Shown here: one piece after another, positions 10,954 to 49,856 of the stretch
Numbering within the stretch: the first letter of the stretch is position 1
Layout of the letters: the number at the start of each line of letters is the position of its first letter
From: Candidatus Iainarchaeum sp.
GTDB lineage: Archaea > Iainarchaeota > Iainarchaeia > Iainarchaeales > Iainarchaeaceae
NCBI GenBank assembly: GCA_043812975.1
Contig: JBDRLP010000001.1
Location: 1 to 52,421 of the forward strand
Length of the DNA stretch: 52,421 nucleotides
Direction: 5' to 3'
The notes under the pieces: model-generated
The model's database searches: none
What the model was told of the DNA's origin: nothing
The model's input: the letters and a program-made list of their open reading frames with translations, nothing else
Program-made: the position numbers and the translations under genes

Positions 10954-11415
10954 CTAGTTCATACTAATTATAAGTTTGTTAATTTCTTCTCCTCGATAGC
11001 CAAGTGCTCCACCTACTGTGAATGGCTTTTTTATACCTGCTCTCTTGTGTCCTTTTCTGGGAGGATGTAATCTTATCACAGGAACAATTCCTAAATCCTT
11101 AAGTTTTACTTTTCCTTCGATAACACTTTTAGCTAATTCTTCAAAGCTGTTAATTTTCTTTTCTTTTAAAAATTCAAGTATAATTTTCTTTTTGCCTTCT
11201 AATCTTCCTCTTTTTGCAAGAACCTTTGTAAGAGTTTCTTCGTTTATTTCCCCGAAAGCAACGTAATCTTTTATTTTTTCAACCATTTTTTTGGAAGGGT
11301 TATCATCTTTGACCAAAACCATGTGGTTTGGTCTGAACAATCTTAAATTTTCCATAGTGTATGTTAAACTAGGGTTAACGTTCACAGTTCCTCTTATTCT
11401 AATAACTGCTATCAT
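10954..11415 (-). CDS. rpl30: 50S ribosomal protein uL30
   Basis: IAVIRIRG, RLHPPRKG, GALGYRGEEINKLI. Confidence 0.96.
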   Translation of the reverse strand: MIAVIRIRGTVNVNPSLTYTMENLRLFRPNHMVLVKDDNPSKKMVEKIKDYVAFGEINEETLTKVLAKRGRLEGKKKIILEFLKEKKINSFEELAKSVIEGKVKLKDLGIVPVIRLHPPRKGHKRAGIKKPFTVGGALGYRGEEINKLIISMN

Positions 11416-11501
11416 CTTTTAGCCTCCAATTCAACAGTTGCGTCTGTTGGGTACGCATACGTCCACCCTATCTGCGATAGGGTATAAATATTCAAATTCA
11501 T
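11412..11501 (-). CDS. Bridge mini-ORF, 29 aa (MNLNIYTLSQIGWTYAYPTDATVELEAKR)
   Basis: ATG overlaps the uS5 stop (ATGA); its TGA overlaps the uL30 ATG. Translation is inferred, not shown. Confidence 0.5.
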   Translation of the reverse strand: MNLNIYTLSQIGWTYAYPTDATVELEAKR

Positions 11502-11517
11502 CTTTTAGCCTCCAATT
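11412..11517 (+). repeat. Junction element (11432-11497) flanked by a 20-bp direct repeat of the uS5/uL30 junction
   Basis: TCATCTTTTAGCCTCCAATT at 11412-11431 and 11498-11517. Hairpins CAACAG-TTGCGT-CTGTTG and ACCCTATC-TGC-GATAGGGT. Confidence 0.92.
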
Positions 11518-12211
11518 TAGTGCTAATGTCATCTGAAACTCTGACCCTGCTTGTTGCAGCCAAAGCATCAATTGCAGCCTGAACAAAGTCTAAAGTTGAA
11601 GCAGTGTTTCCTTCACTTTTACTCCAAACATCTCTGATTCCAGCAAACTCTAGAACTGCCTTAATGTTATCCCCCGCAACCAAACCAGTTCCTTTTGGAG
11701 CTGGTAAAAGTTTTACTCTTACAGAGGATGATTTCCCTATAACATTAAATGGGACTGAGTGACTTTCTTTACATCTGCACTCCCAGCTTCCGCATGCTTT
11801 TCTTACTTTTTTAATGTTTAATTTTGCGTTTCTTGTTGCCTTGTTTATTGCTGGAAACTTTTCCTTGTCCTTAGCTGTACCTAAACCAATGTAAGATTGC
11901 CCGTCCCCGATAAGAACTGCTGCTCTGAATGAAAAATTTCTTCCCTGTCTTGTTACTTTTGTAGTTTTCTTAAAGTCAACCATTTTGTCTTTCAAATCAG
12001 GTACTAAAACATCAACTATTTGAGGTTCCATTATTCTGAAACCTTTTTTAAAGAAATCATCAAGGTTTGTTATTTTGTCTGCTTTAACTAATTTTCCAGC
12101 TTCTGTTTTTGGAACCCAGTCTGAAACAACCTTTACCCTGTCTTCTTCTTTTCTTATAAGTCTTTCTTCTTCAGTTTGTACTCTTCTTGGTCTTCTGGCC
12201 ATTTTACTCAC
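11498..12211 (-). CDS. rps5: 30S ribosomal protein uS5
   Basis: WVPKTEAGKLV, CGSWECRC, RVKLLPAPKGTGLVAG. Confidence 0.97.
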   Translation of the reverse strand: MSKMARRPRRVQTEEERLIRKEEDRVKVVSDWVPKTEAGKLVKADKITNLDDFFKKGFRIMEPQIVDVLVPDLKDKMVDFKKTTKVTRQGRNFSFRAAVLIGDGQSYIGLGTAKDKEKFPAINKATRNAKLNIKKVRKACGSWECRCKESHSVPFNVIGKSSSVRVKLLPAPKGTGLVAGDNIKAVLEFAGIRDVWSKSEGNTASTLDFVQAAIDALAATSRVRVSDDISTKLEAKR

Positions 12212-12713
12212 CTAGCTCCTTATCAATATTATTTTTTGTTTCTTCAAAATTTTTCTCAACATCCTCGCTAATATGTTTTCCGCTAACTCTGCCTTTTTTC
12301 GGGAACACCGTTTCATCAGCAGGAATATTTAATCCAGCATCAATTGCTCCTTTTAATGCACCAAATATTCTTCCGCCGTGGACAGGGGTTACTAAACCTA
12401 AGTCCAGAACTGCTTCTCCAACCTTTTCCTTCATTGCTTTTTTTGCACAAACATAACCTGTCAAGTACGCTGCAGGAATGTTTCCAGTGTGGCCTTTCCA
12501 ACCGAACTTTTTCAATGAACTTGTTGTAAAGTGAGATCTAACAACGTCTCCTTCTATTTTGTAAGTAACAATTTCACAGATAGTTGAGTTGTTGCTTTTT
12601 CTTACAACTAATCGGTCCTTGTTTGATTTTAACAATCCAAGTCTTTTCTTGTAATTAGTTTTGGATTCTCTTCTTCTTCTGAACTTTACTTTATAAGTTG
12701 GGCCTGAACTCAT
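12204..12713 (-). CDS. rpl18: 50S ribosomal protein uL18
   Basis: GPTYKVKFRRRRESKTNYKKR, NIPAAYLTG, KGAIDAGLNIP. Confidence 0.97.
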   Translation of the reverse strand: MSSGPTYKVKFRRRRESKTNYKKRLGLLKSNKDRLVVRKSNNSTICEIVTYKIEGDVVRSHFTTSSLKKFGWKGHTGNIPAAYLTGYVCAKKAMKEKVGEAVLDLGLVTPVHGGRIFGALKGAIDAGLNIPADETVFPKKGRVSGKHISEDVEKNFEETKNNIDKELGE

Positions 12714-13150
12714 TTTTTAGCCTCCCCTACCATTGCTTGAACATACTTCTTTCCCTTGAAGTATCCTCCTTTAATCATCAAATAAATCTGTCTTGCTGGT
12801 TTTTTCAGTTTAACACCGCTTTCTTTCATTTCTTTCAGAACTCTTCTTTGAGCTCTGACATTCTTAATCCATTTTTCTTTCTTGTTGGATCTTGCGTTTT
12901 TCTTTCCTGTTCTTTTACCATGGCCTTTTTTTCTTCCTTTCTTTTTCTTTGCTTTTAAGACTCTGGCCTTTGATTTGCTCTGAAGATTATCCTTTCTTTT
13001 TTTGATAACTCCATCTTTGATAAGTATTCTGACATCCTCTTTTGTCATGGCTTCTTTAACTTTTTGTCCTTCGCTTGGACTGATGTATACTTTGGTTTTC
13101 CCAATCTTGAGGAGTGCTGCTGTGATTGTTTTTGCTTTTTTGTTATCCAT
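12710..13150 (-). CDS. rpl19e: 50S ribosomal protein eL19
   Basis: AMTKEDVRILIKDGVI, GHGKRTGKKNAR, KWIKNVRAQRR. Confidence 0.96.
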   Translation of the reverse strand: MDNKKAKTITAALLKIGKTKVYISPSEGQKVKEAMTKEDVRILIKDGVIKKRKDNLQSKSKARVLKAKKKKGRKKGHGKRTGKKNARSNKKEKWIKNVRAQRRVLKEMKESGVKLKKPARQIYLMIKGGYFKGKKYVQAMVGEAKK

Positions 13151-13265
13151 TAACGGACACCTCCGTTAGCGAGGTGTGCACCTCATTGCAAAACCTTCGG
13201 TTTTGCGATGCCCCGTATCCGAAGGATACAAGGTTGGTAGCACATACATAAAGTTTCAAATTCAT
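13143..13265 (-). CDS. Bridge mini-ORF, 40 aa (MNLKLYVCATNLVSFGYGASQNRRFCNEVHTSLTEVSVNG)
   Basis: ATG overlaps the eL32 stop; TAA overlaps the eL19 start (ATGGATAA). Confidence 0.45.
   Translation of the reverse strand: MNLKLYVCATNLVSFGYGASQNRRFCNEVHTSLTEVSVNG
13151..13261 (+). repeat. Junction element with SD-containing hairpins between eL32 and eL19
   Basis: CACCTCCG...GAGGTGTGCAC...GTAGCAC shared with the copies at 39044 and 40958. Nested GCAAAACC-TTC-GGTTTTGC and GTATCC-GAA-GGATAC hairpins. Confidence 0.85.
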
Positions 13266-13897
13266 GGGTTTAACACCTTGATTCCTTTTTCTATTGCCTT
13301 GTCAACTATTGCCAGTTTTTTCTTTCTTCCGAGTCCTGAAGCAACTCTTATTGCGTGTTTGTCAGGAACATTGTTTATTTCCTGGATTGTTTTAACATTA
13401 AATTCTCTATATCCGCTTGGGTGAATGTCCCTAATTTCTTTAGGCGTCCTGAAACCCTCTTTTGGGGTATAACCATCACACATTTCGTGCTTTACGTCAA
13501 TTCCTCTTGGGAATCTCCATTTGTTCCACTTCGGGTTACTTTTCTTTCTAAGGCTTCTTTTTCCAAACCTTCCTCTGAAAGTAGGAGTTCCCTGTTTCTG
13601 GTTAACTTTTCTTCTTGTTTTAGCAACCGCAGCGTCGGTTTTAATTTGAACCTTTCTGCTCTTTTTCACTTTCTTTGGTTTTGCTTCTTTTGAATCTTTA
13701 ACTACCGTTGCGTCGGTAGGGTGCGCGTCCGCCTTCGGCAGGACTGCTTTAACATCTTTTTTAGCATCAGTTTTTTTTGTTTTAGTTTTAGGTGCAGCTG
13801 CTTTAATTTTCTCTTTAACAGCAACCTTTGCTTTAGGTTTTTCTTTTACTGTTTCTGCTTTTTTAGTTTCTTTTTTTTCTGTTTTCTTTTTAACCAT
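13262..13897 (-). CDS. rpl32e: 50S ribosomal protein eL32 with about 95 aa Lys-rich N-terminal extension
   Basis: PTFRGR, KWRFPRGID, IRDIHPSGYRE. Confidence 0.95.
   Translation of the reverse strand: MVKKKTEKKETKKAETVKEKPKAKVAVKEKIKAAAPKTKTKKTDAKKDVKAVLPKADAHPTDATVVKDSKEAKPKKVKKSRKVQIKTDAAVAKTRRKVNQKQGTPTFRGRFGKRSLRKKSNPKWNKWRFPRGIDVKHEMCDGYTPKEGFRTPKEIRDIHPSGYREFNVKTIQEINNVPDKHAIRVASGLGRKKKLAIVDKAIEKGIKVLNP
13696..13753 (+). repeat. Palindromic element copy, in frame in eL32 (AVLPKADAHPTDATV), flanked by 7-bp direct repeats
   Basis: CTTTAAC at 13696-13702 and 13747-13753; insert plus one repeat is 51 nt (17 codons). CTACCG-TTGCGT-CGGTAG and GTCCGCC-TTC-GGCAGGAC hairpins. Confidence 0.9.
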
Positions 13898-13907
13898 TTC
13901 AATTCAC

Positions 13908-14447: not shown

Positions 14448-14457
14448 TTTTAATCAC

Positions 14458-14850: not shown

Positions 14851-14865
14851 CCAAAATCATCTCCT

Positions 14866-15024: not shown

Positions 15025-15533
15025 TCTACTTCAACCCCGAACTTTTCCTTTACAAAATCTATTGCCTCGTTTTGATGAATCAAGTGTGAATGTAAAATCT
15101 TTGACTTGCCAATTTTTCTTCTTTTAATCCTGTAACCAGGTCTTTCCAAAGTAACCAATACATCAAACCCCTTGATTCCGAGCTTTGGATCATACTTTGC
15201 TTTTGGTAAATCAATATATTCTTTTACTCCAAATCCGAAATTTCCCTGTTTGTCAAAACTCTTTTTCTTTATCTTCTTATCTTTTGCAAGGAATGCTTCA
15301 GTAAGGAATATCTCTGCTTTGTTTCCTCTAAGTGTAACTTTTGTGCCGATAGTTAATCCTGGTCTTAAACCCCAGTCAGGTTGTTTAACCTTACACTTTG
15401 TTAGTGTTGGCTTTGCTCCTGTAACTTTTTCGAGAATAGTCGTAGCTTTCTTTAATTCTTCACCTTTCTGACCAACACCCATGTTGATTGTGACTTTCTC
15501 TACTTTGATTTTTTTCATTTTATTATCCGCCAT
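15021..15533 (-). CDS. rpl5: 50S ribosomal protein uL5
   Basis: [36 protein letters not shown]. Confidence 0.97.
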
Positions 15534-15680
15534 AATAATCACTCTGCTTCCACCGTTGCGTCACCCTTGCGGGTACTCCCTTCGGTCGCGGCGGAGTACG
15601 CGTCCATCTCGCCCGTTAGGGATGGACTCGGTAGGACTTGCTCATTTCGTTTGCATTTCACCATAATAATCACTCTGCTT
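15530..15680 (+). repeat. Composite junction element (15550-15660) flanked by a 20-bp direct repeat of the eS4/uL5 junction
   Basis: CCATAATAATCACTCTGCTT at 15530-15549 and 15661-15680; contains several family modules. Confidence 0.92.
15539..15664 (-). CDS. Bridge mini-ORF, 41 aa (MVKCKRNEQVLPSPSLTGEMDAYSAATEGSTRKGDATVEAE)
   Basis: Starts at the ATG of the upstream repeat copy and ends exactly at the duplicated eS4 stop. Confidence 0.5.
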   Translation of the reverse strand: MVKCKRNEQVLPSPSLTGEMDAYSAATEGSTRKGDATVEAE

Positions 15681-16398
15681 TAAGTACCTCTACTTCTGAT
15701 TTTGATTTTCCGACAACCATTACGTTTCTGGTTACTGTTTGGAATCCTGTTTCTTTATCTCCTAAACTTACAAATTTCTTTTTCTGCAGACTTCCCTTAT
15801 CAACACTTTCAACTGTGTTTGTTTCTCCAACGTGTGTTCCCCCGGTCAGGAATACTATGTATCCTTTTTCCATTGGATAAATTTCTTCAATCTTTACTTC
15901 TGGTAAGGAAACCTTGATTGAGTCATCCACATTTATTCTTTCTTTTTCAATTGCAATTGTGAAACCGTCATTTGTGGTTATCCATGTTTTGCCGCCTTTT
16001 ACTTTTCTTTTGTTGACTACTTTACTTATCTTGAAATCTTTTCCTTTTGCGTCAACTTCTTTCATAACAATTCTTCCTTTTTTGTCAAAAATTGCTCTGT
16101 ACTTTTTCTTTGCATCATCCATTGCAACAACATCAAATAATCCTACAGGAAACCGGTGGTTTTTTCTTACAGAACCATTAACTTTTACTTTTCCCTCTGA
16201 AATAATCTTCTTTGCTTCTTTCATGTTTCTTACTGCTTCAAGTAAGTGTTTTAAAATAAAAGCTAAAGGGACCGAGGTTTCTTTGGTGTGAGGTCCTGGC
16301 TTGCTTTGGATAGTGAATACGTTTTCTTTTCTCATAAAGTACCTTGCTTTAGGTGCTGATAAGCTCTTTTGTGATTTTGTTTCTCCTCTATTTGCCAT
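15670..16398 (-). CDS. rps4e: 30S ribosomal protein eS4
   Basis: KPGPHTKETSVPL, FPVGLFDVV, TGGTHVG. Confidence 0.97.
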   Translation of the reverse strand: MANRGETKSQKSLSAPKARYFMRKENVFTIQSKPGPHTKETSVPLAFILKHLLEAVRNMKEAKKIISEGKVKVNGSVRKNHRFPVGLFDVVAMDDAKKKYRAIFDKKGRIVMKEVDAKGKDFKISKVVNKRKVKGGKTWITTNDGFTIAIEKERINVDDSIKVSLPEVKIEEIYPMEKGYIVFLTGGTHVGETNTVESVDKGSLQKKKFVSLGDKETGFQTVTRNVMVVGKSKSEVEVLKAE

Positions 16399-16837
16399 CT
16401 TCTTTCACCTTCTCCTTTTTATTTGCTTTAACTTCTGTTTTTGCCCCTGCACCCTCACGGGTATTCCCTTTGGTCACAATTTTTTTACCTTTTAATCTTC
16501 TGTCATCTTTATCCTCAATATTTACAATCATCAAATTACTCGCTTTGAAAGGAATCTGAATTTCAGTGCCGTCTAATCTTTTTCTTGTTATTCCTTCAAT
16601 AAGCACCTGTCTTTTTTGTCTTAAAATTGCAGTAATATGCCCCTGCTTTCCGACAAACTTTTCATTCCCTCTCATTATCTTTACTGTGTCTCCTTTTCTT
16701 CCATCCAGACTTCTTTTTCCAATGCTTTCCTTCAATTCCTTGCTTAAGTGCATTGCGAATTCTTTTTGCTGTAAGTGTAATGGTTTGGTGTAATGCCATT
16801 TTCTCTGTTTTTTTGGTTTTGAACTTGTTAATGTCAT
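16388..16837 (-). CDS. rpl24: 50S ribosomal protein uL24
   Basis: SSKPKKQRK, RKGDTVKIMRG, PFKASNLMI. Confidence 0.96.
   Translation of the reverse strand: MTLTSSKPKKQRKWHYTKPLHLQQKEFAMHLSKELKESIGKRSLDGRKGDTVKIMRGNEKFVGKQGHITAILRQKRQVLIEGITRKRLDGTEIQIPFKASNLMIVNIEDKDDRRLKGKKIVTKGNTREGAGAKTEVKANKKEKVKEDGK
16444..16477 (+). repeat. Short palindromic element copy, in frame in the uL24 tail (VTKGNTREGAG)
   Basis: CCCCTGCACCCTCACGGGTATTCCCTTTGGTCAC is the 21444 copy lacking its middle hairpin. Confidence 0.8.
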
Positions 16838-16838
16838 T

Positions 16839-17240
16839 TTATGCAACTCCTGCGCTTATTCCTGCTATTTTTGGAAACCTTTCACCGACTTCCTTTGCAA
16901 CTACTCCTTTAACCTCTGATCCTTTTGGTAATCCTTTTTCATCAACCAAAACAACCGCATTGTCCTCAAACTTTACTCTTGTTCCATCAGGTCTTCGGTA
17001 TTCTTTTTTCTGCCTGATTATAACTGCTTTTTCAACTTTCTTTCTTATTTCAGGTTTTCCTTTCTTAACAACAACATTGCACATTTCCCCGACTCCGCCT
17101 CTTGGGTGTGTGCCTTTTCTTCCGTGATACTTGTAAACAGTAATTATCCTTACTTCTTTTGCACCTGAATTATCTGCACAAATACACCTGCTTCCAAAGC
17201 CCAATGCTCTAACCGGTGATGCGCTCATTGCTTTCATCAT
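16839..17240 (-). CDS. rpl14: 50S ribosomal protein uL14
   Basis: [27 protein letters not shown]. Confidence 0.97.
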
Positions 17241-17530
17241 TGTTCACCTTTCTTAACTATCTCTAAAACTACAAAACTTTTTGTTTTGGAAATTTTTCTT
17301 GTTTCCCCGATCTTTACCATATCTCCTTCATTAACTTCCATTCCTTCAGGGATATGTGCACTAATTTTGCTTTTTGATTTCTTGTATCTTTCGAACTTCC
17401 TAATGTACTGGGTTGTTTTTCTTTCAATTGTAACTGTTTTCGGTGCTTTTGCACTGACAACTTTACCGATAAAAATACTGCCTCTTACACTGTGGCCACT
17501 GCTTACTGGTTTTGTTTCTTTTTCACTCAT
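17237..17530 (-). CDS. rps17: 30S ribosomal protein uS17
   Basis: [33 protein letters not shown]. Confidence 0.96.
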
Positions 17531-17825
17531 TTTTCTTCCTCCAAAGTACTTTTACTCGTTGCTCTGGTTTATACAAAATCTTTTTTCCATCAACTTTTAC
17601 TTTTTCTTTTCCAAGTTTAAACTCAAATTCCGCTTCATTTTTTGGAACTATTTTTTCAATGCCTTTGCTTTCAATTACTAAAGTGTTCTTGGTCTCATCA
17701 ACAACTATTCCTTTCAGGTTTTCCCTGCTTGCATCACTACTTCTTGAAACTCTTGCTTCCAAGCCTATTAGCTCGTGGCCAAGGATATTTTCAGGCGTTA
17801 TGCAGTAATGTTCTGTTTTAAGCAT
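17523..17825 (-). CDS. rnp1: Ribonuclease P protein component 1 (Rpp29/Pop4)
   Basis: HELIGL, GIVVDETKNTL, VPKNEAEFEF; conserved position. Confidence 0.93.
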   Translation of the reverse strand: MLKTEHYCITPENILGHELIGLEARVSRSSDASRENLKGIVVDETKNTLVIESKGIEKIVPKNEAEFEFKLGKEKVKVDGKKILYKPEQRVKVLWRKKNE

Positions 17826-18120
17826 CGATTTGTTCCTCCTTGTATCCATCTTTCAATAAAATTTCCTTAACTTTCATCGAATGTTTTCCTTGTAATTCAA
17901 TTACGCTTTTTTTGACAGTTCCGCCGCAGGCAAGTTTCTTTTTCATTTCTTTTCCAAGCCTTTTTGCTTCCTTATCGTCTTCGAATCCTGAGACTATTGT
18001 AACTATTTTACCAAACCTTCTTGCTATTCCTCTTATCTTGATTTTTTGAGTTTCTTTTGTTATTTCCCCAAAATCAAGAAGGTCTTTTGGTAATCCGGTT
18101 ATCTTATCAATCTCAACCAT
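17818..18120 (-). CDS. sui1: Translation initiation factor aIF1 (SUI1)
   Basis: RRFGKIVTIVSG, KKKLACGGTVK, IELQGKH. Confidence 0.95.
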   Translation of the reverse strand: MVEIDKITGLPKDLLDFGEITKETQKIKIRGIARRFGKIVTIVSGFEDDKEAKRLGKEMKKKLACGGTVKKSVIELQGKHSMKVKEILLKDGYKEEQIDA

Positions 18121-18340: not shown

Positions 18341-19198
18341 TCACTCTTTTTTATCCTCAGCTTTTTCTTCTTTAACTTCTTCCTTTTTTTCTTCAGGCTT
18401 CTCTTCCTTTGCTGGTTTTTCCGCTTTTTTCTCTTCTTTTTTAGGTTCTTTCTTTTCCTTAACTTCAGTTTTTTCTTTAGTTTCCTTTACTTTTTTCTTC
18501 TTTTCTTCTTCTTTTGAAATTTCTTTAGTTGCATCTTTTGTTTCTTTTTCAGTTTCCTCAGTTTTTTCTTTTTGTACTTCGGAAGCTTCTTCTTTTCCTT
18601 TAATATAATCTGTAATCTTTTCCTTATCCGGGAAAACCGTGTCAGGATGCACAATTTTAATTTTAATCCCGATTGCTCCTACTTTAGGGTAAGCATCTGC
18701 TTTACCATAATCAACAAGTCTTGCTTGCTCTCCGACTTTTTTCAAATAACCATAAGCAATTCTCTGTTTTCTTTTTCTTCCCGCTTTTCCAGCAATCTTT
18801 CCGCTTAAAATAATTTCTAACCCCTGCGCTCCGGCTTTTTTGGTTTCGTTTACTGATTTAAACACAATACTTCTCCATGAGAATCCTCTTTCAATAAGAG
18901 CTTTCATCTTGTTTGCAACAGCTTGTGCATCAAGTTCAGGATTTTCAATTTCTCTAATCTCTAATTGCGGGTTATCAATGCCAAATCTGCTTCCGATTGT
19001 TTCTGTTAATTGTGTAATGTTGGAACCGCTTTTTCCGATTGCAAGCCCTGGTCTTGTAACATTAACAACAATTCTTGTTACTAATGGGGTTTTCACAATC
19101 TCTGATTTTGTAAAGCCGGCCCTTTCAAGTTCTTTTGAAAGATAATCGTCCAGTTCAAGTTTTTTTAATCCCTGTTCAATGAAATATTTTTCTATCAT
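18341..19198 (-). CDS. rps3: 30S ribosomal protein uS3 with Lys/Glu-rich C-terminal tail
   Basis: KTPLVTRI, RPGLAIGKSG, ERGFSWR; start at 19198 overlaps TAATG. Confidence 0.97.
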   Translation of the reverse strand: MIEKYFIEQGLKKLELDDYLSKELERAGFTKSEIVKTPLVTRIVVNVTRPGLAIGKSGSNITQLTETIGSRFGIDNPQLEIREIENPELDAQAVANKMKALIERGFSWRSIVFKSVNETKKAGAQGLEIILSGKIAGKAGRKRKQRIAYGYLKKVGEQARLVDYGKADAYPKVGAIGIKIKIVHPDTVFPDKEKITDYIKGKEEASEVQKEKTEETEKETKDATKEISKEEEKKKKVKETKEKTEVKEKKEPKKEEKKAEKPAKEEKPEEKKEEVKEEKAEDKKE

Positions 19199-19394
19199 TA
19201 TTTGGCCTCCATCCACAGTTTCGGCTGTGGGCTACGATAACCCAAGCTCCTTTCAGTCGCATGGGTTTGGCTCACTCCGTTCGCTATAATCATTATTTGG
19301 CCTCCATCCACAGTTTCGGCTGTGGGGTGCACGTACCATCTTCGCTTGTGCTCGATGCTACTTAAAATATTAAAAATCATTATTTGGCCTCCAT
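19194..19394 (+). repeat. Two tandem junction elements between three copies of a 19-bp uL22/uS3 junction
   Basis: ATCATTATTTGGCCTCCAT at 19194-19212, 19289-19307 and 19376-19394. Both inserts begin CCACAGTTTCGGCTGTGGG. Confidence 0.93.
19198..19380 (-). CDS. Bridge mini-ORF, 60 aa (MIFNILSSIEHKRRWYVHPTAETV...KLWMEAK)
   Basis: ATG overlaps the uL22 TAA; reads through both inserts; its TAA overlaps the uS3 ATG. Confidence 0.5.
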   Translation of the reverse strand: MIFNILSSIEHKRRWYVHPTAETVDGGQIMIIANGVSQTHATERSLGYRSPQPKLWMEAK

Positions 19395-20268: not shown

Positions 20269-20988
20269 TTACTTTTTTCTCCTTCCTGTTCTTGATGATG
20301 CAATGTCTCCAACTTTTCTTCCCGGAGCAGCCCTTCTTGAAGTGGACTTTGATTTTCCAGGGTGATGGTTAGCTCCACCAAATGGATGGTCTTTAGCGTT
20401 CATTGCAATTCCTCTTACTGTTGGGTATTTCTTGTGCTTTGCTTTCATTGAATGATATTTATTTCCTGCCTTTACAAATGGCTTGTCTCTTCTTCCTCCG
20501 GAACCAGCACAACCAATTGTTGCTCTGTTCTGTGGATTTAATTCCATTGTTTTTCCTGAAGGCATTTTAACATAAACTGTTTTTTTATCTTTAGTAATTA
20601 TCAAAGCGTAAGTTCCCGAACTTCTTACAAGGCTTCCTCCATCCCCTGGGATTTTTTCAACATTAAATATTGGGCATCCTTCTACACAATTTCCAATTGG
20701 TTTAACGTTTCCTATTTGTAAATCAGCGTCTGCTCCGTACTCAACTTTCTGGCCTACAAACATACCCTCTGCTGCTACACTATGCTGTTGTGAACCATTA
20801 TCAAACTCTATTTTTGAGAGAACTGATGTTCTTGCAGGATCATGAATAAGTTCAACAACTTCTCCTTTCAAAGTTTTTTCTGTCATTTCTGTATAATCAA
20901 CATACTGTGCTGGAGCTATGCCTCTTTGTGTTGCCACGAATACCGGGCTTCCTTTTCCTCTTCTCTGGGTTTTTAGTCTCTTAGGCAT
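20269..20988 (-). CDS. rpl2: 50S ribosomal protein uL2
   Basis: QRRGKGSP, HDPART, VRGIAMNAKDHPFGG, PGRKVG. Confidence 0.97.
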   Translation of the reverse strand: MPKRLKTQRRGKGSPVFVATQRGIAPAQYVDYTEMTEKTLKGEVVELIHDPARTSVLSKIEFDNGSQQHSVAAEGMFVGQKVEYGADADLQIGNVKPIGNCVEGCPIFNVEKIPGDGGSLVRSSGTYALIITKDKKTVYVKMPSGKTMELNPQNRATIGCAGSGGRRDKPFVKAGNKYHSMKAKHKKYPTVRGIAMNAKDHPFGGANHHPGKSKSTSRRAAPGRKVGDIASSRTGRRKK

Positions 20989-20989
20989 T

Positions 20990-21067
20990 TTATCTAACTC
21001 CAACGCCGTTTGCGATCGGCGGTACCGCGCCCACCTTTGGTAGGGCAGATGTATTTTTTATAGCCAT
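20990..21067 (-). CDS. Bridge mini-ORF, 25 aa ([25 protein letters not shown])
   Basis: ATG overlaps the uL23 TAA; its own TAA lies 1 nt before the uL2 ATG. Confidence 0.5.
   Translation of the reverse strand: MAIKNTSALPKVGAVPPIANGVGVR
21001..21047 (+). repeat. Junction element between uL23 and uL2
   Basis: CGCCG-TTTGCGAT-CGGCG plus GCCCACC-TTT-GGTAGGGC; closely matches the copy at 34207. Confidence 0.85.
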
Positions 21068-21546
21068 TATATTACACCTAACTTTGTAGCTATATCATCA
21101 GCTTTATATTTTTTGTCAATTGTAACAATTGCTTTCTTTCTTGATTTCATATCCTTAATGATGTTAACTGCGTTGACCTTAACTTTGTAAAGTCCTTCTA
21201 TTGATTTTTTTATGCTGATTTTATTAGCTTTTTTATCAACAATAAATGTAAGTTTGTTTTCTGCTTCAATCATGTTAACTGCTTTTTCTGTAATTAAAGG
21301 ATACTTAATAATTGTCAAACCTTCAATTTCTGCTTCAATTTCTTCTAAAGTTTTTTTCCCTTTCTTAACTTCCTTTTTCTTTTCTTTCTTTTCCTCTTTT
21401 TTATAATCTTCTTTTTTTGCTTCGGCTTTATGTGTGTGCTTTTCCCCTGCACCCTTACGGGTACCTTCGGCGGGACTTCCTTTGGTCGCAGCTTTCTTAG
21501 CTTCCTTTTTTGTTTTTACTTTTTTTTCTGTTTTTTTCTTAGCCAT
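21067..21546 (-). CDS. rpl23: 50S ribosomal protein uL23 with Lys/Glu-rich N-terminal extension
   Basis: [30 protein letters not shown]. Confidence 0.96.
21444..21491 (+). repeat. Palindromic element copy, in frame in uL23 ([16 protein letters not shown])
   Basis: GCACCCTTACGGGTACCTTCGGCGGGACT identical to the copy at 36326. Confidence 0.92.
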
Positions 21547-21556: not shown

Positions 21557-22459
21557 CTAAGCTTTTGCCTCACCCGAGCGTGCTCTTCCTCTGCGAGGAC
21601 CTAAGGGTCGGGAGGGAGCGTCCACCTTCGGTAGGACTTCCTTTTTTACTTCTTTCTTTTCACCAGCTAATTGTTTAATTGCATTCTCTGACCAGAGAGT
21701 TAATCTTCCCGGTAGAGTTCCTGGTGCTAAAAGATCAGCATTAATATTAACCGCACTTATAATGTCAACCCCTTCAAGGTTTCTTGCTGCTTTGTAAACA
21801 TTCTCTGGGTTTTCAACTACAATCAAAACACTTTTTCTTTTCTTGTATTTTCTTCCTCTCTTTTTTCCTTTTCCAGGTCTTAATTGTCTTTTACTCAAAG
21901 CCTTTTCTACATCCTGATAAACATCAATTGCTTTCAAAGCATCTCTAATATCTTTTGTTTTTGCAAGGGTTTCAAGCTTTGCTTCAACAACAATCGGAAA
22001 CTCTAATTTTTCTCCAAACTTGTGGCCTCTTTCTTTTACTAATTCTTTTTTTCCTGTTGCTGCGATTGCTGATTCAGTTGCCTGTCTTTTTTCTTTTTTA
22101 TTTATTTTTTCTTCCCATTCTTTGTTTGGCTTTGGAGGGTGTGCTTTTGGGCCTCCAACAACAGCCGGAATACTAGCAACGTGTCCTGAAAGGATTCCTC
22201 TTCTGTTTTTCAATCTTGGCTTTCTAGCATGGCCAACGTTAATTGTTCTGTGAATATTAGGTTTGTGCCTAGCTCCGATATATTCCGCAGTGTTTGCCCT
22301 TCCTGCTTCAGGTTTAGGGAAACTGTTTTGAACACCAGCAGACTGAATTGCCTGCACTGCTCTTTTAATAAGTGCTAGATTAATATCCGCAGAGAACTGC
22401 TTTGGTAAAGTAATATCAGGACCTTTTGTCCCATCCAAACCTAAAACACTAGCTTTCAT
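21557..22459 (-). CDS. rpl4: 50S ribosomal protein uL4
   Basis: VVGGPKAHPPK, KINKKEKR, RPGKGKKRGRKYK, LLAPGTLPGRLT. Confidence 0.97.
   Translation of the reverse strand: MKASVLGLDGTKGPDITLPKQFSADINLALIKRAVQAIQSAGVQNSFPKPEAGRANTAEYIGARHKPNIHRTINVGHARKPRLKNRRGILSGHVASIPAVVGGPKAHPPKPNKEWEEKINKKEKRQATESAIAATGKKELVKERGHKFGEKLEFPIVVEAKLETLAKTKDIRDALKAIDVYQDVEKALSKRQLRPGKGKKRGRKYKKRKSVLIVVENPENVYKAARNLEGVDIISAVNINADLLAPGTLPGRLTLWSENAIKQLAGEKKEVKKEVLPKVDAPSRPLGPRRGRARSGEAKA
21571..21638 (+). repeat. Palindromic element copy, in frame at the uL4 C-terminus (EVLPKVDAPSRPLGPRRGRARSG)
   Basis: GCGTCCACC-TTC-GGTAGGACT module plus CCTC-TGC-GAGG hairpin. Confidence 0.85.
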
Positions 22460-23634
22460 TTTTTAGCCTCCTTAGGTTCTTTCTTTACTTCTTTTTTCTC
22501 AGAATCTTTCTTTAGCTCTTCTTTTTTTGCCTCAGATTTGTCTTCTTTCTTTTCAGATTTAGGTTTTTCTTCCTTGTGTTCAGGCTTTTTTTCTTTCTTT
22601 GGTTCTTCCTTAGTTTCTGCTTTTTCTTCTGTTCCAAATGGTAATTGTAAATCAGTGTACTTTGCTAGATTAAGGTCGCCTTTTCTGATTGCATGTCTTA
22701 ATGCAATTGTTCTTTTTGCAGGCCCTGGAACTGAACCAACTACAACAATAAAATCACTTTTCAAAACTCCGTAGTTTGTTAATCCTTGTGGTGGGCTTAT
22801 TGTTTTTGGATCGTTTTCAACAAAAAGAATCCTCTTGTTGTATTCTGTTCTTGTATGATATCCCATTTGTCCTGGTCTTGGAACCGTCCACATTACTGTT
22901 GCTGGATGCCATGGTCCTATTGATCCAACAGCCCTGTGTTTTTTTGCTTTAGGCCTCTGGATTTTAATTCCGAATCTTTTTACTGGCCCCTGAAATCCTT
23001 TTCCTTTGTTTACTGCTTTAACATCAATAAATTCCTGTGCTTCAAAAACATCATTAATCCTGATTTCTTTTCCAAATTTTTCTTTTGCAAATGCTAATTG
23101 CTGTTCAACAGTTCCGTTAAGATTAAGTTCTGCAACATCTGCTTTCTTTTTTCCAATCCCTGTTTGGCTTGGTTGTAATTCTGATAAAAGTACGACTTTT
23201 ACTGTTTTTTCCTTGAATTTTTCAAGGTCTTCAAATTTAGAATAAGTTTTCGCTTCTTTCTTCTTTTTTCCTTGTTTTTTGAAAGCTTTTATTTTTTCTC
23301 TTAAATGCTTTCCTGGCTTGTCAATAGTAGCTTCTCCTAAAACTTTTAAGCCATCGATTGTTTTCTTGTAAGCCCTAGCTCCGATGATTTTGATTGGCGG
23401 ACATTCAATAATAGTAGCAGGAATTGCTGTATCAACCCCGAAATTTACGCTCTTTTCGTGTGAGTTCTTGCCAAAAATAGTGATCATTCCTGCTTTAAAT
23501 CCAAAGAAATTGATTGGTTTTGAGGATTCTGTTTCGATAGTTGGATAAGTAGAAAAATTAGCTAATTGCCTCTTAGCCCTCACCCTTGGGTAATAAGCTA
23601 AGCTTCCTGATCTGGGTTTATGTCCTCCGGCTAT
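22456..23634 (-). CDS. rpl3: 50S ribosomal protein uL3 (start codon problematic)
   Basis: HKPRSGSLAYYPRVRA lies upstream of the tracked GTG 23583; GFKAGM, KGKGFQGPVKRFG, PRPGQMGYHTRTE. Best in-frame start candidate is ATA 23634. Confidence 0.93.
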   Translation of the reverse strand: MAGGHKPRSGSLAYYPRVRAKRQLANFSTYPTIETESSKPINFFGFKAGMITIFGKNSHEKSVNFGVDTAIPATIIECPPIKIIGARAYKKTIDGLKVLGEATIDKPGKHLREKIKAFKKQGKKKKEAKTYSKFEDLEKFKEKTVKVVLLSELQPSQTGIGKKKADVAELNLNGTVEQQLAFAKEKFGKEIRINDVFEAQEFIDVKAVNKGKGFQGPVKRFGIKIQRPKAKKHRAVGSIGPWHPATVMWTVPRPGQMGYHTRTEYNKRILFVENDPKTISPPQGLTNYGVLKSDFIVVVGSVPGPAKRTIALRHAIRKGDLNLAKYTDLQLPFGTEEKAETKEEPKKEKKPEHKEEKPKSEKKEDKSEAKKEELKKDSEKKEVKKEPKEAKK

Positions 23635-34186: not shown

Positions 34187-34342
34187 TTATCTGATTCTTA
34201 CTTCTTCAACGCCGCTTGCGATCGGCACCCTTACGGGCACATGCGGTACCGCGTCCACCTCACTTTGTTCGGTAGGACTTAGTTCCTTGTTCGCAAACTT
34301 TTTCTAATAATTCTTTTCATCACCTAATTCTTACTTCTTCAA
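34187..34342 (+). repeat. Composite junction element (34207-34294) between nusA and rps12, with a duplicated NusA C-terminus
   Basis: ATTCTTACTTCTTCAA at 34194-34209 and 34327-34342; modules shared with 21001 and 21444. Confidence 0.88.
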
Positions 34343-39043: not shown

Positions 39044-39129
39044 TACGCGGTCACCTCCGCGTGTGAGGTGTGCACTTCGCTTGGGCTCAGTAGCACTGGC
39101 TCACATCCGTTCGCAAAATCATTTTTCAT
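39043..39129 (-). CDS. Bridge mini-ORF, 28 aa (MKNDFANGCEPVLLSPSEVHTSHAEVTA)
   Basis: ATG 4 nt after the rpoB' stop, with GGTG SD; its TAA overlaps the rpoA' ATG. Confidence 0.5.
   Translation of the reverse strand: MKNDFANGCEPVLLSPSEVHTSHAEVTA
39044..39115 (+). repeat. Junction element with SD-containing hairpins between rpoB' and rpoA'
   Basis: CACCTCCG..GAGGTGTGCAC..GTAGCAC plus CTCACATCCGTTCGC module. Confidence 0.85.
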
Positions 39130-40957: not shown

Positions 40958-41015
40958 ATGCGGAGACCTCCGCATTCAGAGGTGTGCACCTGCGGTAGCA
41001 CCTATTAAAATTCAT
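40950..41015 (-). CDS. Bridge mini-ORF, 21 aa (MNFNRCYRRCTPLNAEVSAYG)
   Basis: ATG overlaps the rpoB'' stop; TAG overlaps the rpoB' start (ATGGTTAG). Confidence 0.45.
   Translation of the reverse strand: MNFNRCYRRCTPLNAEVSAYG
40958..41000 (+). repeat. Junction element with SD-containing hairpins between rpoB'' and rpoB'
   Basis: ATGCGGAG-AC-CTCCGCAT and GAGGTGTGCACC..GTAGCAC. Confidence 0.85.
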
Positions 41016-42478
41016 TTAAGTTTCACTCCCATGTCGTTCAATAATTTTTCAACTGGGTCTTCTTCAGTTTCAGTTGTTACTTCTGCAAGCATTGCCAAAT
41101 TTTTTACCAAACCACATTGTGGTCCGTCAGGAGTTTCTACAGGGCATAGTCTTCCCCAGTGGGTTCCGTGAACGTCCCTTGCTTCATAAAGTTCTCTGTT
41201 TTTGTCAAGCGGGCTCTTAACTTTTCTCAGGTCAGTTAATGGAGATAAATAATTAACTCTGTCCATGAACTTTGAAACCCCAGTAGCCCTGCCAATCCAG
41301 TTTCCTGTACTCATAGCAAACCTGATTCTTTCTGATACTGCGCCCGGCCTTACAATAGTTGAAATGTTAAGTTTTCTTCTTCTTGTAACAGTTCTGTCAA
41401 TCTGGAATTTCAAATCTTTAATGAAATATTTGAACGAGTACCTGAATAAGTGTTCCATTAATTTTCCTGACAATTCCAGTCTTTTGTTAGCATAATGGTC
41501 CTTATCATCTTCTTCCCTTAAATCATAAGCTCTTTCAATTGCCTTAGTTGCCATCATAACCAAGTAATATGCTTTAGCAAGCCTGTCTTTTGAATCCTGT
41601 CCAATGTGCGGTAACAGGAAAGCATCTATTACTTCCTGTGCTCTTCTAAGCCTGTACTCTTCCACCTGCCCTGGTGCGACAAATTTCCCGATTTTGTCAA
41701 GAGCTTCTTTTTCAGATTTTACTAATAAATTTTCATTATTAATCAGAACATCATTTTGTACTTCCATTTCATCAACAAAAGCATCCTTAATTGACTGTGA
41801 TGTTTTGATTCCGAGTGCTTTCAGTAAAACAAATAGTTTTAATTTTCTTGGTGAAGCCGGGAAGGTAACATGCAGGAGTCCATCTGGGCTTCTTAAGATT
41901 CTTACTCTTCCTTTGAAAGCGCCTTTAGTTGAGATAACTTCTGCAACAATTTTATCTGTCTGTTCTGAAACAATAACTCTGTCAGAAGCTAAAACTTCCT
42001 GAGTCATCAAAGCTTTTTCAGAACCATTTACAATGAAGTAACCTCCAAAGTCCATTGGGTCTTCTTTTAATTCAATTAGTTCTTCTTTGGTTTTTCCGTT
42101 CAACCAGCAAAGATGACTTTTAAGCATTACGGGTAATTCGCCGATGTAAGTATCTTTCCGATCATGCTCAACATCTCTTCTCAGAAGTTTCATGGTTAAG
42201 TTAATAGGGCTTGAGTAGGTTCTGTTTCTCAGCCTTGCTTCTATTGGGTAGAATTCGTTTCTGGGTGAACCGTCAGCTTCAACAATTCTTGGTTTTAAAA
42301 TACTAATCTTGTCAAACTCAACTTTTACTTCCTCAATCTTAGGAACAACTTCTTTGTTTTCAGCAACAATTTCCGGAAGTTTCTTTTTAACAAACTGGTT
42401 GAAAGAATCAATTTCCATCTGGGCAATATTTCTGTCTCTGAAATAAGAATTGATTAGGGTCCAGCCGTTAATAGCCAT
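41012..42478 (-). CDS. rpoB2: RNA polymerase subunit Rpo2N (B'')
   Basis: IDSFNQFV, EARLRNRTYS, GYFIVNGSEK, HWGRLCPVETP; start at ATG 42478 with GAGGTG SD. Confidence 0.97.
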   Translation of the reverse strand: MAINGWTLINSYFRDRNIAQMEIDSFNQFVKKKLPEIVAENKEVVPKIEEVKVEFDKISILKPRIVEADGSPRNEFYPIEARLRNRTYSSPINLTMKLLRRDVEHDRKDTYIGELPVMLKSHLCWLNGKTKEELIELKEDPMDFGGYFIVNGSEKALMTQEVLASDRVIVSEQTDKIVAEVISTKGAFKGRVRILRSPDGLLHVTFPASPRKLKLFVLLKALGIKTSQSIKDAFVDEMEVQNDVLINNENLLVKSEKEALDKIGKFVAPGQVEEYRLRRAQEVIDAFLLPHIGQDSKDRLAKAYYLVMMATKAIERAYDLREEDDKDHYANKRLELSGKLMEHLFRYSFKYFIKDLKFQIDRTVTRRRKLNISTIVRPGAVSERIRFAMSTGNWIGRATGVSKFMDRVNYLSPLTDLRKVKSPLDKNRELYEARDVHGTHWGRLCPVETPDGPQCGLVKNLAMLAEVTTETEEDPVEKLLNDMGVKLK

Positions 42479-42600
42479 TAAACAACCACCTCGCCGTTTT
42501 CCCACTTCGTGGACTTCGCGACCGGCGGCACCGAAGCACACTGCTTCGCAGTGGGCGTGCTCGCTTCGCTCGCAAAATAATTGCCGATTATACAACCACC
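42477..42600 (+). repeat. Junction element (42492-42573) between rpoH and rpoB'', flanked by a 14-bp near-perfect duplication
   Basis: ATTA(A/T)ACAACCACC at 42477-42490 and 42587-42600. Hairpins CCAC-TTC-GTGG and CACTGC-TTC-GCAGTG; CTCGCTTCGCTCGC module. Confidence 0.88.
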
Positions 42601-46473: not shown

Positions 46474-46480
46474 TTGAGAT

Positions 46481-46711: not shown

Positions 46712-46761
46712 ATTTTATAATTAGTTTTAACTATTATTAATTAGTTTGTTTTTTGTTAGTT

Positions 46762-47493: not shown

Positions 47494-47504
47494 TAAAAAG
47501 AAAA

Positions 47505-48674: not shown

Positions 48675-48783
48675 GTTTTTCACTCTAATAAGGTAGAAAT
48701 TAATACTTATAAATCATAGTGGGGGTTAATCGGCGTTCTATAAGTTTTAAAATCTTGAAAGATGATAAAGTATAAGTGTTAAT

Positions 48784-49677
48784 ATGGAATTACCAAAAGT
48801 AAGCCCCAAAGTAAAGGCAATTAAAGCAAAATTGGCTTCTGCAAAACTACTCGGGATAGTTGTAAAAAACTCTTTACAATTCAAACTCAGAAGAAAAGCT
48901 CTACGACGTTTTAAAGCAACAGAATTTGACACTATTGTTGTCGATATGGATGGTACGCTTTACAAGAGCGATGCAAACCTGGAAGCCTTGAAAGTTGTTT
49001 ATCCTGAATCTGAAAATGGGTTAGTAAAAGGCGAGGAACTTTACGATTCTATTCTTTCAAAAATAGCTTCCGGAACGTATAGTGTTGAACAAGCTATTGT
49101 TGAGGGAAATAAACTTTTGATGAAAAAAAACATGAAAAAGAAGGATTTTTCAAAAGTACTTGATAAAATAAAGTCCGGGATAAGAAAACCTTTGGTGAGG
49201 TCTCTTAAGAAAATGAAAAAATCAGGAAAAACAATTGTGTTAGCAACACTTTCATCAAAAGAATTCGGCGAACTTCTGAATTCTTATCTGAAAAAAGAAT
49301 TTGATTTTTCTTTTGATTTAATTGTAGGCACACAACTTAAGTATGATGTTCAGGGAAAAATTATCGGAGTTAAAAGCATGGTAAGTACAAAAGACACAGT
49401 ATACAAAAAAATCTATGTTAAATCAAAACTCTCAGCTATTCGTGCTGCTCTAGAAGAACAAGGAAAAGAACTGAATTTAAAAAAATCAATCCTTATTACT
49501 GACAGTTATTCTGATATTGACCTTGCAAAAATGTTTGTAACTGTTTTAATACAACCAACAAGATCAACCACTCCGCAAAAAGTTTCCCAAAGATTAAAAT
49601 TAGCTGATTATATTTTCCCTGAAAAATATTTGCAGACTAATTTAGAATCACTTATTCTAGGTCCAGAAATAGAGTAA
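48784..49677 (+). CDS. HAD superfamily hydrolase (SerB-like) with basic N-terminal extension
   Basis: Motif I DMDGT; LATLSS; KLSA; ITDSYSD. Confidence 0.82.
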   Translation: MELPKVSPKVKAIKAKLASAKLLGIVVKNSLQFKLRRKALRRFKATEFDTIVVDMDGTLYKSDANLEALKVVYPESENGLVKGEELYDSILSKIASGTYSVEQAIVEGNKLLMKKNMKKKDFSKVLDKIKSGIRKPLVRSLKKMKKSGKTIVLATLSSKEFGELLNSYLKKEFDFSFDLIVGTQLKYDVQGKIIGVKSMVSTKDTVYKKIYVKSKLSAIRAALEEQGKELNLKKSILITDSYSDIDLAKMFVTVLIQPTRSTTPQKVSQRLKLADYIFPEKYLQTNLESLILGPEIE

Positions 49678-49679
49678 CT

Positions 49680-49856
49680 AAAATTCAATTTTTTCCAGTT
49701 CTACACCGGCTTCTTTCAGCACCACAGTTGCCCCCTTCGGGGATCCCTGTGGGACGGCTGTGGGGTGCGCGTACCATCTTCGTCACGCCTAGTAGGCGGG
49801 ACTCGATGCTACTCAAAATTCAATTTTTTCCAGTTCTACACCGGCTTCTTTCAGCA
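49680..49856 (+). repeat. Palindromic element (49722-49814) flanked by a perfect 42-bp duplication of the dCMP deaminase 3' end
   Basis: AAAATTCAATTTTTTCCAGTTCTACACCGGCTTCTTTCAGCA at 49680-49721 and 49815-49856; core matches 19308-19375. Confidence 0.93.

Follow-up and report, generated by a model that had tools for sequence, protein, structure and literature searches.

Introduction

Rickettsia palindromic elements (RPE) and the ERIC, YPAL and Correia elements of bacteria are A+T-rich and have terminal inverted repeats and short, fixed target-site duplications (TSDs) of the TA type (unknown for RPE; PMC2229807). The GC clusters of yeast mitochondria, which have counterparts in the repetitive hairpin elements of other mitochondria, are flanked by repeats of 2–3 nt (AG or ACT), and an RNA route has been suggested for them (PMC4478555, PMC2800124). 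Here we describe a family of GC-rich hairpin elements in a contig of Candidatus Iainarchaeum sp. (JBDRLP010000001.1), a DPANN archaeon of the Diapherotrites; the whole contig of 52,421 nt (35.7% GC, compared with ~36% GC for the genome) was analysed and is called the window. The elements are inserted between and within genes, most of them in ribosomal-protein and RNA polymerase (RNAP) operons, and many are flanked by direct repeats of very variable length. The explanation favoured overall, with a probability of about 0.55, is that small non-autonomous hairpin elements would have colonised the genome by recent and still polymorphic insertions, that the flanking repeats would arise through the filling-in of widely and variably staggered breaks, and that only some of the insertions would survive in tightly coupled essential operons. 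The family shows how selfish DNA can enter those loci of a reduced genome that are under the greatest constraint, and do so without killing the host.

Like the bacterial repeats that resemble MITEs (miniature transposable elements with inverted repeats), RPE included, the archaeal elements are shorter than 200 nt, form stable stem-loops, are non-coding in themselves and are polymorphic between relatives, and like RPE they are found between genes and also fused in frame within conserved protein genes (PMC2229807). Unlike those repeats they form GC-rich islands in an AT-rich archaeal genome, lack terminal inverted repeats, have TSDs of 0–42 nt, are fixed at the 3′ end but variable at the 5′ end, and show a single orientation, a single codon phase and relay open reading frames (relay ORFs), which span an insert from the duplicated start codon of the downstream gene. 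With the mitochondrial GC clusters they share GC-rich palindromes in an AT-rich compact genome, fast turnover, merger, nesting and shuffling, and an occasional location in coding regions, but they differ in their long variable duplications, archaeal host and position at operon junctions with restored signals. Integration at attachment (att) sites in tRNA genes and gene 3′ ends likewise regenerates the interrupted gene end and leaves a variable direct repeat, as at a tRNA 3′ end in locus L030 of the archaeal loci searched here; there, however, the element carries the identical repeat, whereas here the repeat is unique to each target, the element is ~45–110 nt long and there is no integrase. The long variable duplications, the 3′-anchored architecture, the strict orientation and phase, the Shine-Dalgarno sequence (SD) carried by one type of element (type C) and the relay ORFs set the family apart from the known kinds. 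Literature searches of partial coverage returned no description of such elements for Diapherotrites or Iainarchaeia.

Direct repeats and empty sites

An earlier note on this DNA had claimed seven direct repeats, and all seven were found where it placed them, on the minus strand; repeat sets are read here on this coding strand, with copy 1 being the upstream copy in the sense of the gene. Exact repeats of at least 14 nt that lie 20–200 nt apart occur at nine loci in the window, seven of them linked to elements, while Markov and block shuffles give 0.17–0.32. Each repeat pair brackets a stretch of 44–111 nt with 44–68% GC that folds into stable hairpins. The core of the elements consists of a hairpin H1 (GTCC-T-ACC GAA GGT-GGAC), a 7-nt linker (GCGYACC) and a hairpin H2 (6-bp stem with loop NCGCAA or CCGAAA).

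Syntenic loci were available from several relatives: L001 and L050 (NZBD01; ~88–90% nucleotide identity), L004 and L047 (JGI 3300009514; ~93–95%), and the more distant L048 (JACQPB010000035.1), L049, L051 and L052. The closest long relative, NZBD01000004.1, is Ca. Iainarchaeum archaeon ARS1427, and the best-named relatives of uL2 are from Ca. Diapherotrites metagenome-assembled genomes (MAGs). The empty-site check that the earlier note had proposed was borne out in L001, L004, L047 and L049, which have a single junction copy and no insert. Single-copy empty sites were found in relatives at uS5/uL30, eS4/uL5, uL22/uS3 (L001), uL23/uL2, the eL32 tail, eL32/eL19, NusA/uS12, RpoH/RpoB'' and the deaminase 3′ end, and the repeats are therefore almost certainly true TSDs of a polymorphic mobile family. 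An assembly artefact is unlikely because inserts at identical sites are present in independent assemblies (uL22/uS3 in L004, RpoB'/RpoA' in L047 and uS13 in L050) and the family occurs in several MAGs and one single-cell genome.

The order of events could in principle be reversed, with slippage duplicating the junction first and hairpin sequence being added between the copies later. Tight, similar, SD-containing junctions could favour slippage, and some flanking copies have diverged (E5, E6 and E8 below), but no relative has a duplicated junction free of an insert, every empty site having one copy; moreover, the youngest duplications are exact and always bracket a family member, and the same architecture recurs at the 3′ ends of genes and of a tRNA. 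A two-step origin is thus very improbable. Spread by recombination between similar junctions was considered and rejected, since each TSD is identical with the sequence of its own target and shared with no other.

Turnover is fast. The window and L004 differ in the presence of elements at most sites despite 93–95% identity, with the inserts at uL23/uL2 and eS4/uL5, the second insert at uL22/uS3 (E4b) and the one in the uL4 tail found in the window only. Relatives have copies of their own, such as a core element in the uL24 tail of L001 and L004 and an element in the uS4 tail of L052, and the RpoB''/RpoB' junction has four different inserts in four genomes (the window, L028, L048 and L049) and is empty in L047.

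Inserts at gene junctions and gene ends

All inserts described for the window lie on the minus strand. At the uS5/uL30 junction (E1; 11412–11517) a 20-nt TSD, AATTGGAGGCTAAAAGATGA, at 11498–11517 and 11412–11431 encloses a 66-nt insert (11432–11497), and a relay ORF of 29 amino acids (aa) runs from an ATG at 11501 to a TGA overlapping the uL30 ATG; the site is empty in L001. The eS4/uL5 junction (E3; 15530–15680) has a 20-nt TSD, AAGCAGAGTGATTATTATGG, at 15661–15680 and 15530–15549 around a 111-nt insert with nested hairpins, and the stop of its 41-aa relay ORF is the duplicated eS4 stop; L001 and L004 are empty. Two inserts of 68 nt (E4a) and 76 nt (E4b) are present at uL22/uS3 (19194–19394), separated and flanked by three 19-nt copies of ATGGAGGCCAAATAATGAT at 19376, 19289 and 19194, and a single 60-aa relay frame (19198–19380) passes across both; L001 is again empty. 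The identity of copies 2 and 3 extends over 38 nt, since the repeat reaches into the first insert's 3′ hairpin. L004 has one insert at this junction, of which the 5′ half is that of the window while the linker hairpin is swapped, and it has its own 33-aa relay ORF; its TSD is 23–25 nt as against 19 nt in the window, a difference explained by a 5-nt deletion.

At uL23/uL2 (E8; 20988–21081) an insert of ~60 nt with its H1–H2 core at 21004–21046 lies between diverged copies of the uL23 end, and a 25-aa relay ORF ends on the copied TAA, 1 nt ahead of the uL2 ATG. The earlier note had suspected a diverged repeat pair here; the insertion is real, since L001 and L004 are empty at this position, and its flanks are probably duplicated, agreeing at ~10 of 15 nt and preserving G-V-x-stop. 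The RpoH/RpoB'' insert (E6; 42477–42600) is 96 nt long and has a 14-nt TSD with one mismatch (42587 and 42477) that begins exactly at the SD GGTGG; the repeat may extend ~9 nt more, and copy 1 has lost its start codon. L049 and L048 are empty.

Two further inserts duplicate little beyond a gene end. Between NusA and uS12 (E5; 34187–34342) a 110-nt insert is flanked by 16 nt of exact repeat (34327 and 34194), which extends to a 23-nt TSD with three differences, all of them synonymous in copy 1 (I-R-stop kept), and the site is empty in L049. Because the divergence of copy 1 is synonymous only, here and in L028, copy 1 is the functional gene end. The E5 relay ORF has only 13 aa and ends before H1, and the TSD is unneeded for uS12 expression. 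At the 3′ end of the dCMP-deaminase gene (E7; 49680–49856) an exact 42-nt TSD (49815 and 49680) corresponds to the last 13 codons, and the 93-nt insert provides a new TGA stop; L049 is empty here too.

Three sites have inserts of type C, without a long TSD, in which the H2 loop contains GGAGGTG and ends 0–2 nt ahead of the next start codon, so that the element supplies its own SD. The eL32/eL19 insert (13153–13261; ~103–109 nt) has a 40-aa relay ORF and a 3′ hairpin loop holding GGAGGTG directly ahead of the eL19 ATG, and is absent in L001. At RpoB'/RpoA' (E9; 39046–39120) the insert has its own GGAGGTG and a 28-aa relay ORF ending in TAATG; it is present in L047 and absent in L049. At RpoB''/RpoB' (E10; 40960–41011) the native SD spacer is replaced, and a 21-aa relay ORF overlaps the RpoB' start at 40957.

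Duplication length, relay ORFs and selection

Observed TSD lengths are 7, 11, 14, 15, 18, 19, 20, 20, 23, 23–25, ~36, 38 and 42 nt, with ~0 at some sites. Intragenic and nested copies have TSDs of 0–7 nt and copies between genes have 11–42 nt, in agreement with the variability that the earlier note had contrasted with the fixed TSDs of DDE transposases. Its further proposal, that the duplications copy the 3′ end of the upstream gene, the SD and the start codon, holds for the operon-junction cases only and fails at 13696, which is inside eL32, and at 34194 and 49680, where only the last upstream codons and the stop are copied.

A relay ORF spans the insert at 7/8 intergenic junctions in the window, beginning at the start codon in TSD copy 1, which is the old start of the downstream gene. 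The relay frame is the only open one at 7/8 junctions, the other two frames having 1–6 stops each, and its end lies within −8 to +5 nt of the true start of the downstream gene, mostly at the duplicated upstream stop. In 9/9 cases checked the copied upstream stop lies a whole number of codons from the start codon of the relay (P ~5e-5), and the relay therefore ends on it. Most intergenic inserts in relatives have a relay ORF too, as in L004, L037, L040, L047, L048 (two junctions) and L025, the last being a case in which an antisense copy lies in front of a probably leaderless ABCE1 gene. The exceptions are E5, where the downstream SD lies beyond the duplication, and E6 with its destroyed start; both fit the same coupling logic.

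These properties suggest how an insert could be tolerated. In survivors TSD copy 1 would restore the end and stop of the upstream gene and copy 2 the SD and start of the downstream gene, the alternative to a copied SD being one brought by the element itself, as in type C. Element and TSD together would have a length that allows the relay, opened at the duplicated start, to cross the hairpins and terminate at the real start or overlapping it; termination-reinitiation coupling would thus be preserved and the hairpins unwound on the way. Operons with ATGA or TAATG junctions probably tolerate an insert only when ribosomes are handed across it, and a translating relay would also melt hairpins that otherwise bury the SD. 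At operon junctions the TSD starts 0–7 nt upstream of the SD and extends 0–1 nt beyond the start codon. No smaller duplication would restore every signal, and the pattern points to selection. That relay ORFs and selection for restored junctions account for the surviving inserts is very probable, and inserts that rebuild a gene end, SD and start and add a relay constitute a natural experiment on archaeal termination-reinitiation.

Selection had also been suggested in the earlier note as inflating the observed lengths. It does shape the survivors at operon junctions, as the TSD edges and the phase of the nine relays indicate, but long TSDs are also present at sites that need none. Duplications that are unneeded include the 23 nt at NusA/uS12 (E5), the 42 nt at the deaminase 3′ end (E7), a diverged ~36 nt at the Ogg 3′ end in L049, 15 nt at the tRNA 3′ end in L030, and 11 nt at the ABCE1 start in L025 and L043. 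Variable length is therefore a property of the mechanism itself, and the insertion process intrinsically yields duplications from ~0 to 42 nt, commonly 15–25 nt.

In-frame copies within genes, orientation and codon phase

A scan for GC islands found copies beyond the first seven, three of them intergenic and at least six intragenic (two in uS4 and one each in uS13, uL24, uL23 and uL4). A further intragenic copy is E2 in the N-terminal tail of eL32 (13696–13753), where a 44-nt H1–linker–H2 core lies between 7-nt TSDs, GTTAAAG, at 13747–13753 and 13696–13702; insert and one TSD copy together make 51 nt and are read in frame as VLPKADAHPTDATV. Core elements are also in frame in the N-terminal tail of uS13 (7806–7857; VLPKADAAQRASTDATV), which is shared with L050 and absent in L051 and L052, and elements are in frame in the C-terminal tail of uL4 (21585–21637; beginning VLPKVDAPSRPLGPRRG), absent in L001 and L004, and at the extreme C-terminus of uS4 (6462–6509), where H2 ends just upstream of the uS11 SD and which is absent in L050, L051 and L052. 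A second kind of module, type B, is found in frame in the N-terminal tail of uL23 (21445–21489; absent in L001, with 24 nt present in L004), in the C-terminal tail of uS4 (6654–6740; part of a 153-nt tail expansion) and, as a short fragment reading VTKGNTREGAG, in the C-terminal tail of uL24 (16456–16482). L001 and L004 instead have their full core element in the uL24 tail a few codons downstream of the position of this fragment.

The core has no stop codon in any frame, and all of the ~9 core copies within long ORFs are read in frame 0 (GTC CTA CCG AAG GYG GAC GC), giving VLPK[A/V]DA...PT[D/A]ATV, while the type B modules always read ATKGSP. All intragenic copies are multiples of 3 nt and lie in Lys/Glu-rich terminal tails. 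The likeliest source of the codon-phase bias is selection: the other two phases would give peptides rich in Arg, Trp, Tyr and Cys through CGN codons that are presumably rare in an AT-rich genome. There are strong grounds to conclude that intragenic copies are retained in just one codon phase and only where a tail is disordered and rich in K/E. The uS13 insert differs between the window and L050 by six synonymous and three non-synonymous changes, one of the synonymous changes breaking H1; a fixed insert therefore evolves as coding sequence, and old inserts seem to be kept as peptide and not as structure.

Low-complexity K/E-rich tails are present on uS3, uL23, uL3, uS4, eL32 and uS13 (window 18341–19216, 21067–21546, 22456–23583 and 6421–7296 among them); their length varies among close relatives by multiples of 3 nt, and in-frame elements land there. 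In the MAG CAZEBH01 (L016, 400–520) the element forms 72-nt (24-codon) tandem repeats in an open frame of 278 codons, possibly building a repeat protein. The inserts extend ribosomal-protein tails by up to ~70 residues, create spurious small ORFs (e.g. 19198–19380), and disturb marker-gene alignments used for DPANN phylogeny and MAG quality checks.

Frame selection bears on the idea that the inserts are removed or skipped during expression, either as bulge-helix-bulge (BHB) introns or by ribosomal bypass of the gene-60 kind with the repeats as take-off and landing sites. In its favour, the inserts are GC-rich, structured and bordered by direct repeats, like the bypass elements of T4 and yeast mitochondria, and RtcB is encoded nearby in relatives. 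The intragenic copies, however, are stop-free, have lengths divisible by 3 and share one phase, and the intergenic copies keep the relay frame open; excised or skipped inserts would not experience such selection, and bypass is unnecessary for intragenic copies that are in frame and contain no stop. No BHB shape was found in the predicted folds and no Rfam match was obtained, leaving removal or bypass with the faintest chance of all the explanations weighed.

Every copy in the window is in the sense orientation of the neighbouring gene, so that the strict strand bias reported in the earlier note was confirmed, and its basis could be narrowed down in L049. There the elements of the rpo operon are on the plus strand and the Ogg 3′-end element is on the minus strand, each sense to its own gene, and orientation therefore tracks transcription or translation and not one DNA strand. 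Of 18 window copies, 17 lie within 28 kb of ribosomal-protein and RNAP operons (P ~2e-4), and this clustering in operons that should be least tolerant of inserts suggests an insertion bias towards highly transcribed DNA.

Structure and distribution of the elements

Smaller hairpins capped by GNRA or GAA are nested in either loop of the core, and a 5′ module, TTGCGAACGGAGTGAGC, is frequent, with AT-rich sequence before it. A covariance model (R1) of the 43-nt core was searched against the window and archaeal loci (302 kb in total) and gave 46 matches, including 10 in the window, all ten on the minus strand. The 3′ end is sharp, with H2 ending 0–2 nt ahead of TSD copy 2 in 11/14 events as read by eye, and several elements have a short T-rich tail past H2. 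The 5′ end is variable, since 2–47 nt of sequence that is unrelated between copies separate TSD copy 1 from H1. Terminal inverted repeats were not found, and a pairing of 5′ TTTGCGA and 3′ TCGCAA is limited to some copies. The bases preceding the elements are not conserved, and the first bases of the TSD are T(T)G in 6/15 cases compared with a background of 8% (a post hoc comparison).

No Rfam family matched the elements at gathering or E-value thresholds, and they are not tRNA-like, as ARAGORN finds only the tRNA-Leu at 5236–5321 in the window. Viral contigs scanned with patterns for H1 and linker–H2 gave no matches and thus no viral or plasmid master copy. A metagenome scan, which used an over-strict pattern, yielded four loci only. 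The exact 20-mer of H1, GTCCTACCGAAGGTGGACGC, occurs in at least six genomes of Iainarchaeia, including the single-cell genome of I. andersonii; matches in high-GC bacteria look like chance. A possible origin of the AT-rich 5′ parts as decayed starts of downstream genes was dropped as a general rule, the similarity being weak except in E6.

The same 20-mer is also found in Methanolliviera and in a tar-biofilm Halobacteriota MAG, in a different phylum (L019 3727–3746, L020 2081–2100, L023 1306–1325, L027 5235–5254, and L015/L033). In Methanolliviera TTTTTACA always precedes H1 and a second hairpin (AGGxTGAAAGGGTG...) comes after it; these antisense elements, which resemble repetitive extragenic palindromic (REP) sequences, are located ~25 nt downstream of the 3′ ends of genes. 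The hairpin could have spread horizontally, or a factor that binds it could be shared. The Methanolliviera matches were rejected as IS200/IS605 ends, being small intergenic hairpins past genes with no adjoining TnpA or TnpB ORF.

Insertion mechanism

The sharp 3′ end and ragged 5′ end suggest insertion by copying that begins at the 3′ hairpin, with the short T(T)G tail probably annealing to the target; the odds for such 3′-anchored copying are about even. The source would perhaps be an RNA copy made from highly transcribed operons and inserted by target priming in the manner of short interspersed elements (SINEs), although an RNA intermediate must be regarded as rather doubtful. Target-primed reverse transcription (TPRT) of SINEs and long interspersed elements (LINEs) also gives variable TSDs (mode ~19–20 nt here) and a defined 3′ end with a truncated or heterogeneous 5′ end and filler, together with occasional replacement of target sequence, possible co-mobilisation of a flank (L046 here) and possible 3′ microhomology, and an RNA route would be consistent with all of these as well as with sense orientation and the bias towards strongly expressed loci. 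TPRT as such does not entail strict sense orientation. That these are the first archaeal SINE-like retroelements, hairpin RNAs copied back from the 3′ hairpin at staggered breaks, is unlikely. On such a view hairpin RNAs would be released from, or read through in, the most transcribed operons, and the copying enzyme may jump to the 3′ end of a local transcript, which would explain the sense orientation, the insertion at gene and tRNA ends and the duplications of 7–42 nt.

Several observations weigh against the favoured explanation or its RNA version. No reverse transcriptase, endonuclease, transposase or integrase was found by Pfam among the 20 non-ribosomal window ORFs scanned, the elements differ from SINEs and LINEs in having no A-tail, and to our knowledge retrotransposition of the TPRT type has no archaeal precedent. 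The type C inserts (13153–13261, E9 and E10) and some tail inserts seem to be replacements with little or no TSD, and one copy (L025/L043) duplicated the start of ABCE1 and lies antisense to that gene. In L046 an exact 19-nt direct repeat, CTTTTTCTTTTGGTACAGC, encloses ~250 nt (1827–2096) comprising a whole tRNA gene, its upstream AT-rich region or promoter and a reversed hairpin element; it looks as if the tRNA gene has been co-mobilised, and a composite that includes a promoter argues for a DNA-level event. Covariation speaks for one structured family, the R1 alignment having 97% of its cells paired and compensatory changes in 11/13 pairs, far above shuffled and slid controls, but these counts rest on an alignment fitted to the model. 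RNA structure and single-stranded DNA structure are indistinguishable because the hairpins are symmetric and G-U pairs rare, leaving few wobble pairs for a comparison of G-U with A-C asymmetry. The overall sample is ~300 kb, and several of the P values are post hoc.

The main rival is copying without a dedicated enzyme during replication or repair. A stalled nascent strand would switch to another copy of the element and return upstream of where it left, generating the flanking duplication, in a process like microhomology-mediated break-induced replication or fork stalling and template switching (MMBIR/FoSTeS); in a variant, a hairpin-bearing 5′ flap or primer would escape FEN1 and be ligated in, duplicating the displaced stretch. 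The spread of TSDs over 0–42 nt, the events that replace rather than insert, the heterogeneous 5′ filler and the lack of a mobilising gene among the window ORFs scanned are all consistent with copy-choice, as are the L046 composite and the mosaic, nested elements that differ module by module between close relatives (the window and L004 at uL22/uS3 and uL24). Random template switching, however, should copy arbitrary segments, whereas a nearly unchanged 43-nt core with the same sharp 3′ boundary recurs at many unrelated sites in several genomes. Nor does copy-choice predict the strict sense orientation that follows genes on both strands or the enrichment in the most transcribed operons, and we consider it improbable. 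Depending on which is correct, the mechanism could turn out to be an archaeal retro-insertion pathway or a hairpin-driven pathway of replication error; the former, if true, would be categorically new. We know of no prokaryotic enzymology for long, variable TSDs combined with a 3′-anchored element.

Transposition as DNA by a hairpin-recognising enzyme would make the elements miniature derivatives; candidates are an HUH/Y1 transposase that acts on single-stranded DNA, of the RAYT or IS200/IS605 type, and an integrase, whether Cas1-like or not. TnpA of IS200/IS605 binds subterminal hairpins, and the two conserved hairpins, one of them with a bulged T, seem to resemble those that it binds; hairpin-defined small repeats with strong strand asymmetry are also typical of palindrome-associated transposable elements (PATEs) of IS200/IS605 and of REP sequences and bacterial interspersed mosaic elements (BIMEs), and the identical H1 20-mer in the REP-like Methanolliviera intergenic elements after TTTTTACA points the same way. 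Those elements, however, have no TSD, a fixed target tetranucleotide and an extragenic location, none of which holds here: TSDs reach 42 nt, the preceding bases vary, and in-frame intragenic copies number at least six in the window and occur in relatives as well. With an undefined 5′ end, no transposase among the window ORFs scanned and an orientation that follows genes and not one replichore strand, this route is quite unlikely, and 3′-anchored copying at staggered breaks followed by selection remains the preferred explanation.

Elements next to tRNA genes

Arrays of hairpin elements lie directly 3′ to tRNA genes in L030 (1120–1450, reverse complement), L010 (1440–1760) and L046 (7480–7800). 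In L030 the insert begins exactly past the discriminator base of the tRNA and is followed by the 15-nt copy of the tRNA 3′ end.

Other features of the window

Nearly all window genes are on the minus strand. One set forms the ribosomal-protein clusters from uL3 through SecY to uS2, and a second cluster contains RpoH, the split RpoB''/RpoB', RpoA'/RpoA'', eL30, NusA, uS12, uS7, EF-2 and EF-1alpha. The EF-2 gene (29364–33086, minus strand; 1240 aa) contains an intein with a LAGLIDADG homing-endonuclease domain at residues ~51–544, also present in L048 and L049, and this is the only mobile feature identified by Pfam among the 20 non-ribosomal window ORFs. L048 has further inteins in RpoB'' (1490 aa; 4527–8999) and uS12 (661 aa; 15847–17832), whose window copies are intein-free; a 1.7-kb NusA–uS12 gap in L048, considered as a candidate autonomous element, is actually the intein inside uS12.

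A gene at 23915–25762 (minus strand) encodes a 615-aa protein predicted to be membrane-anchored or secreted, for which the orthologue in a relative has no Pfam match. Its N-terminal region is extremely rich in Tyr and Asn, and the DNA there contains short imperfect repeats (families D3, D5 and D15).

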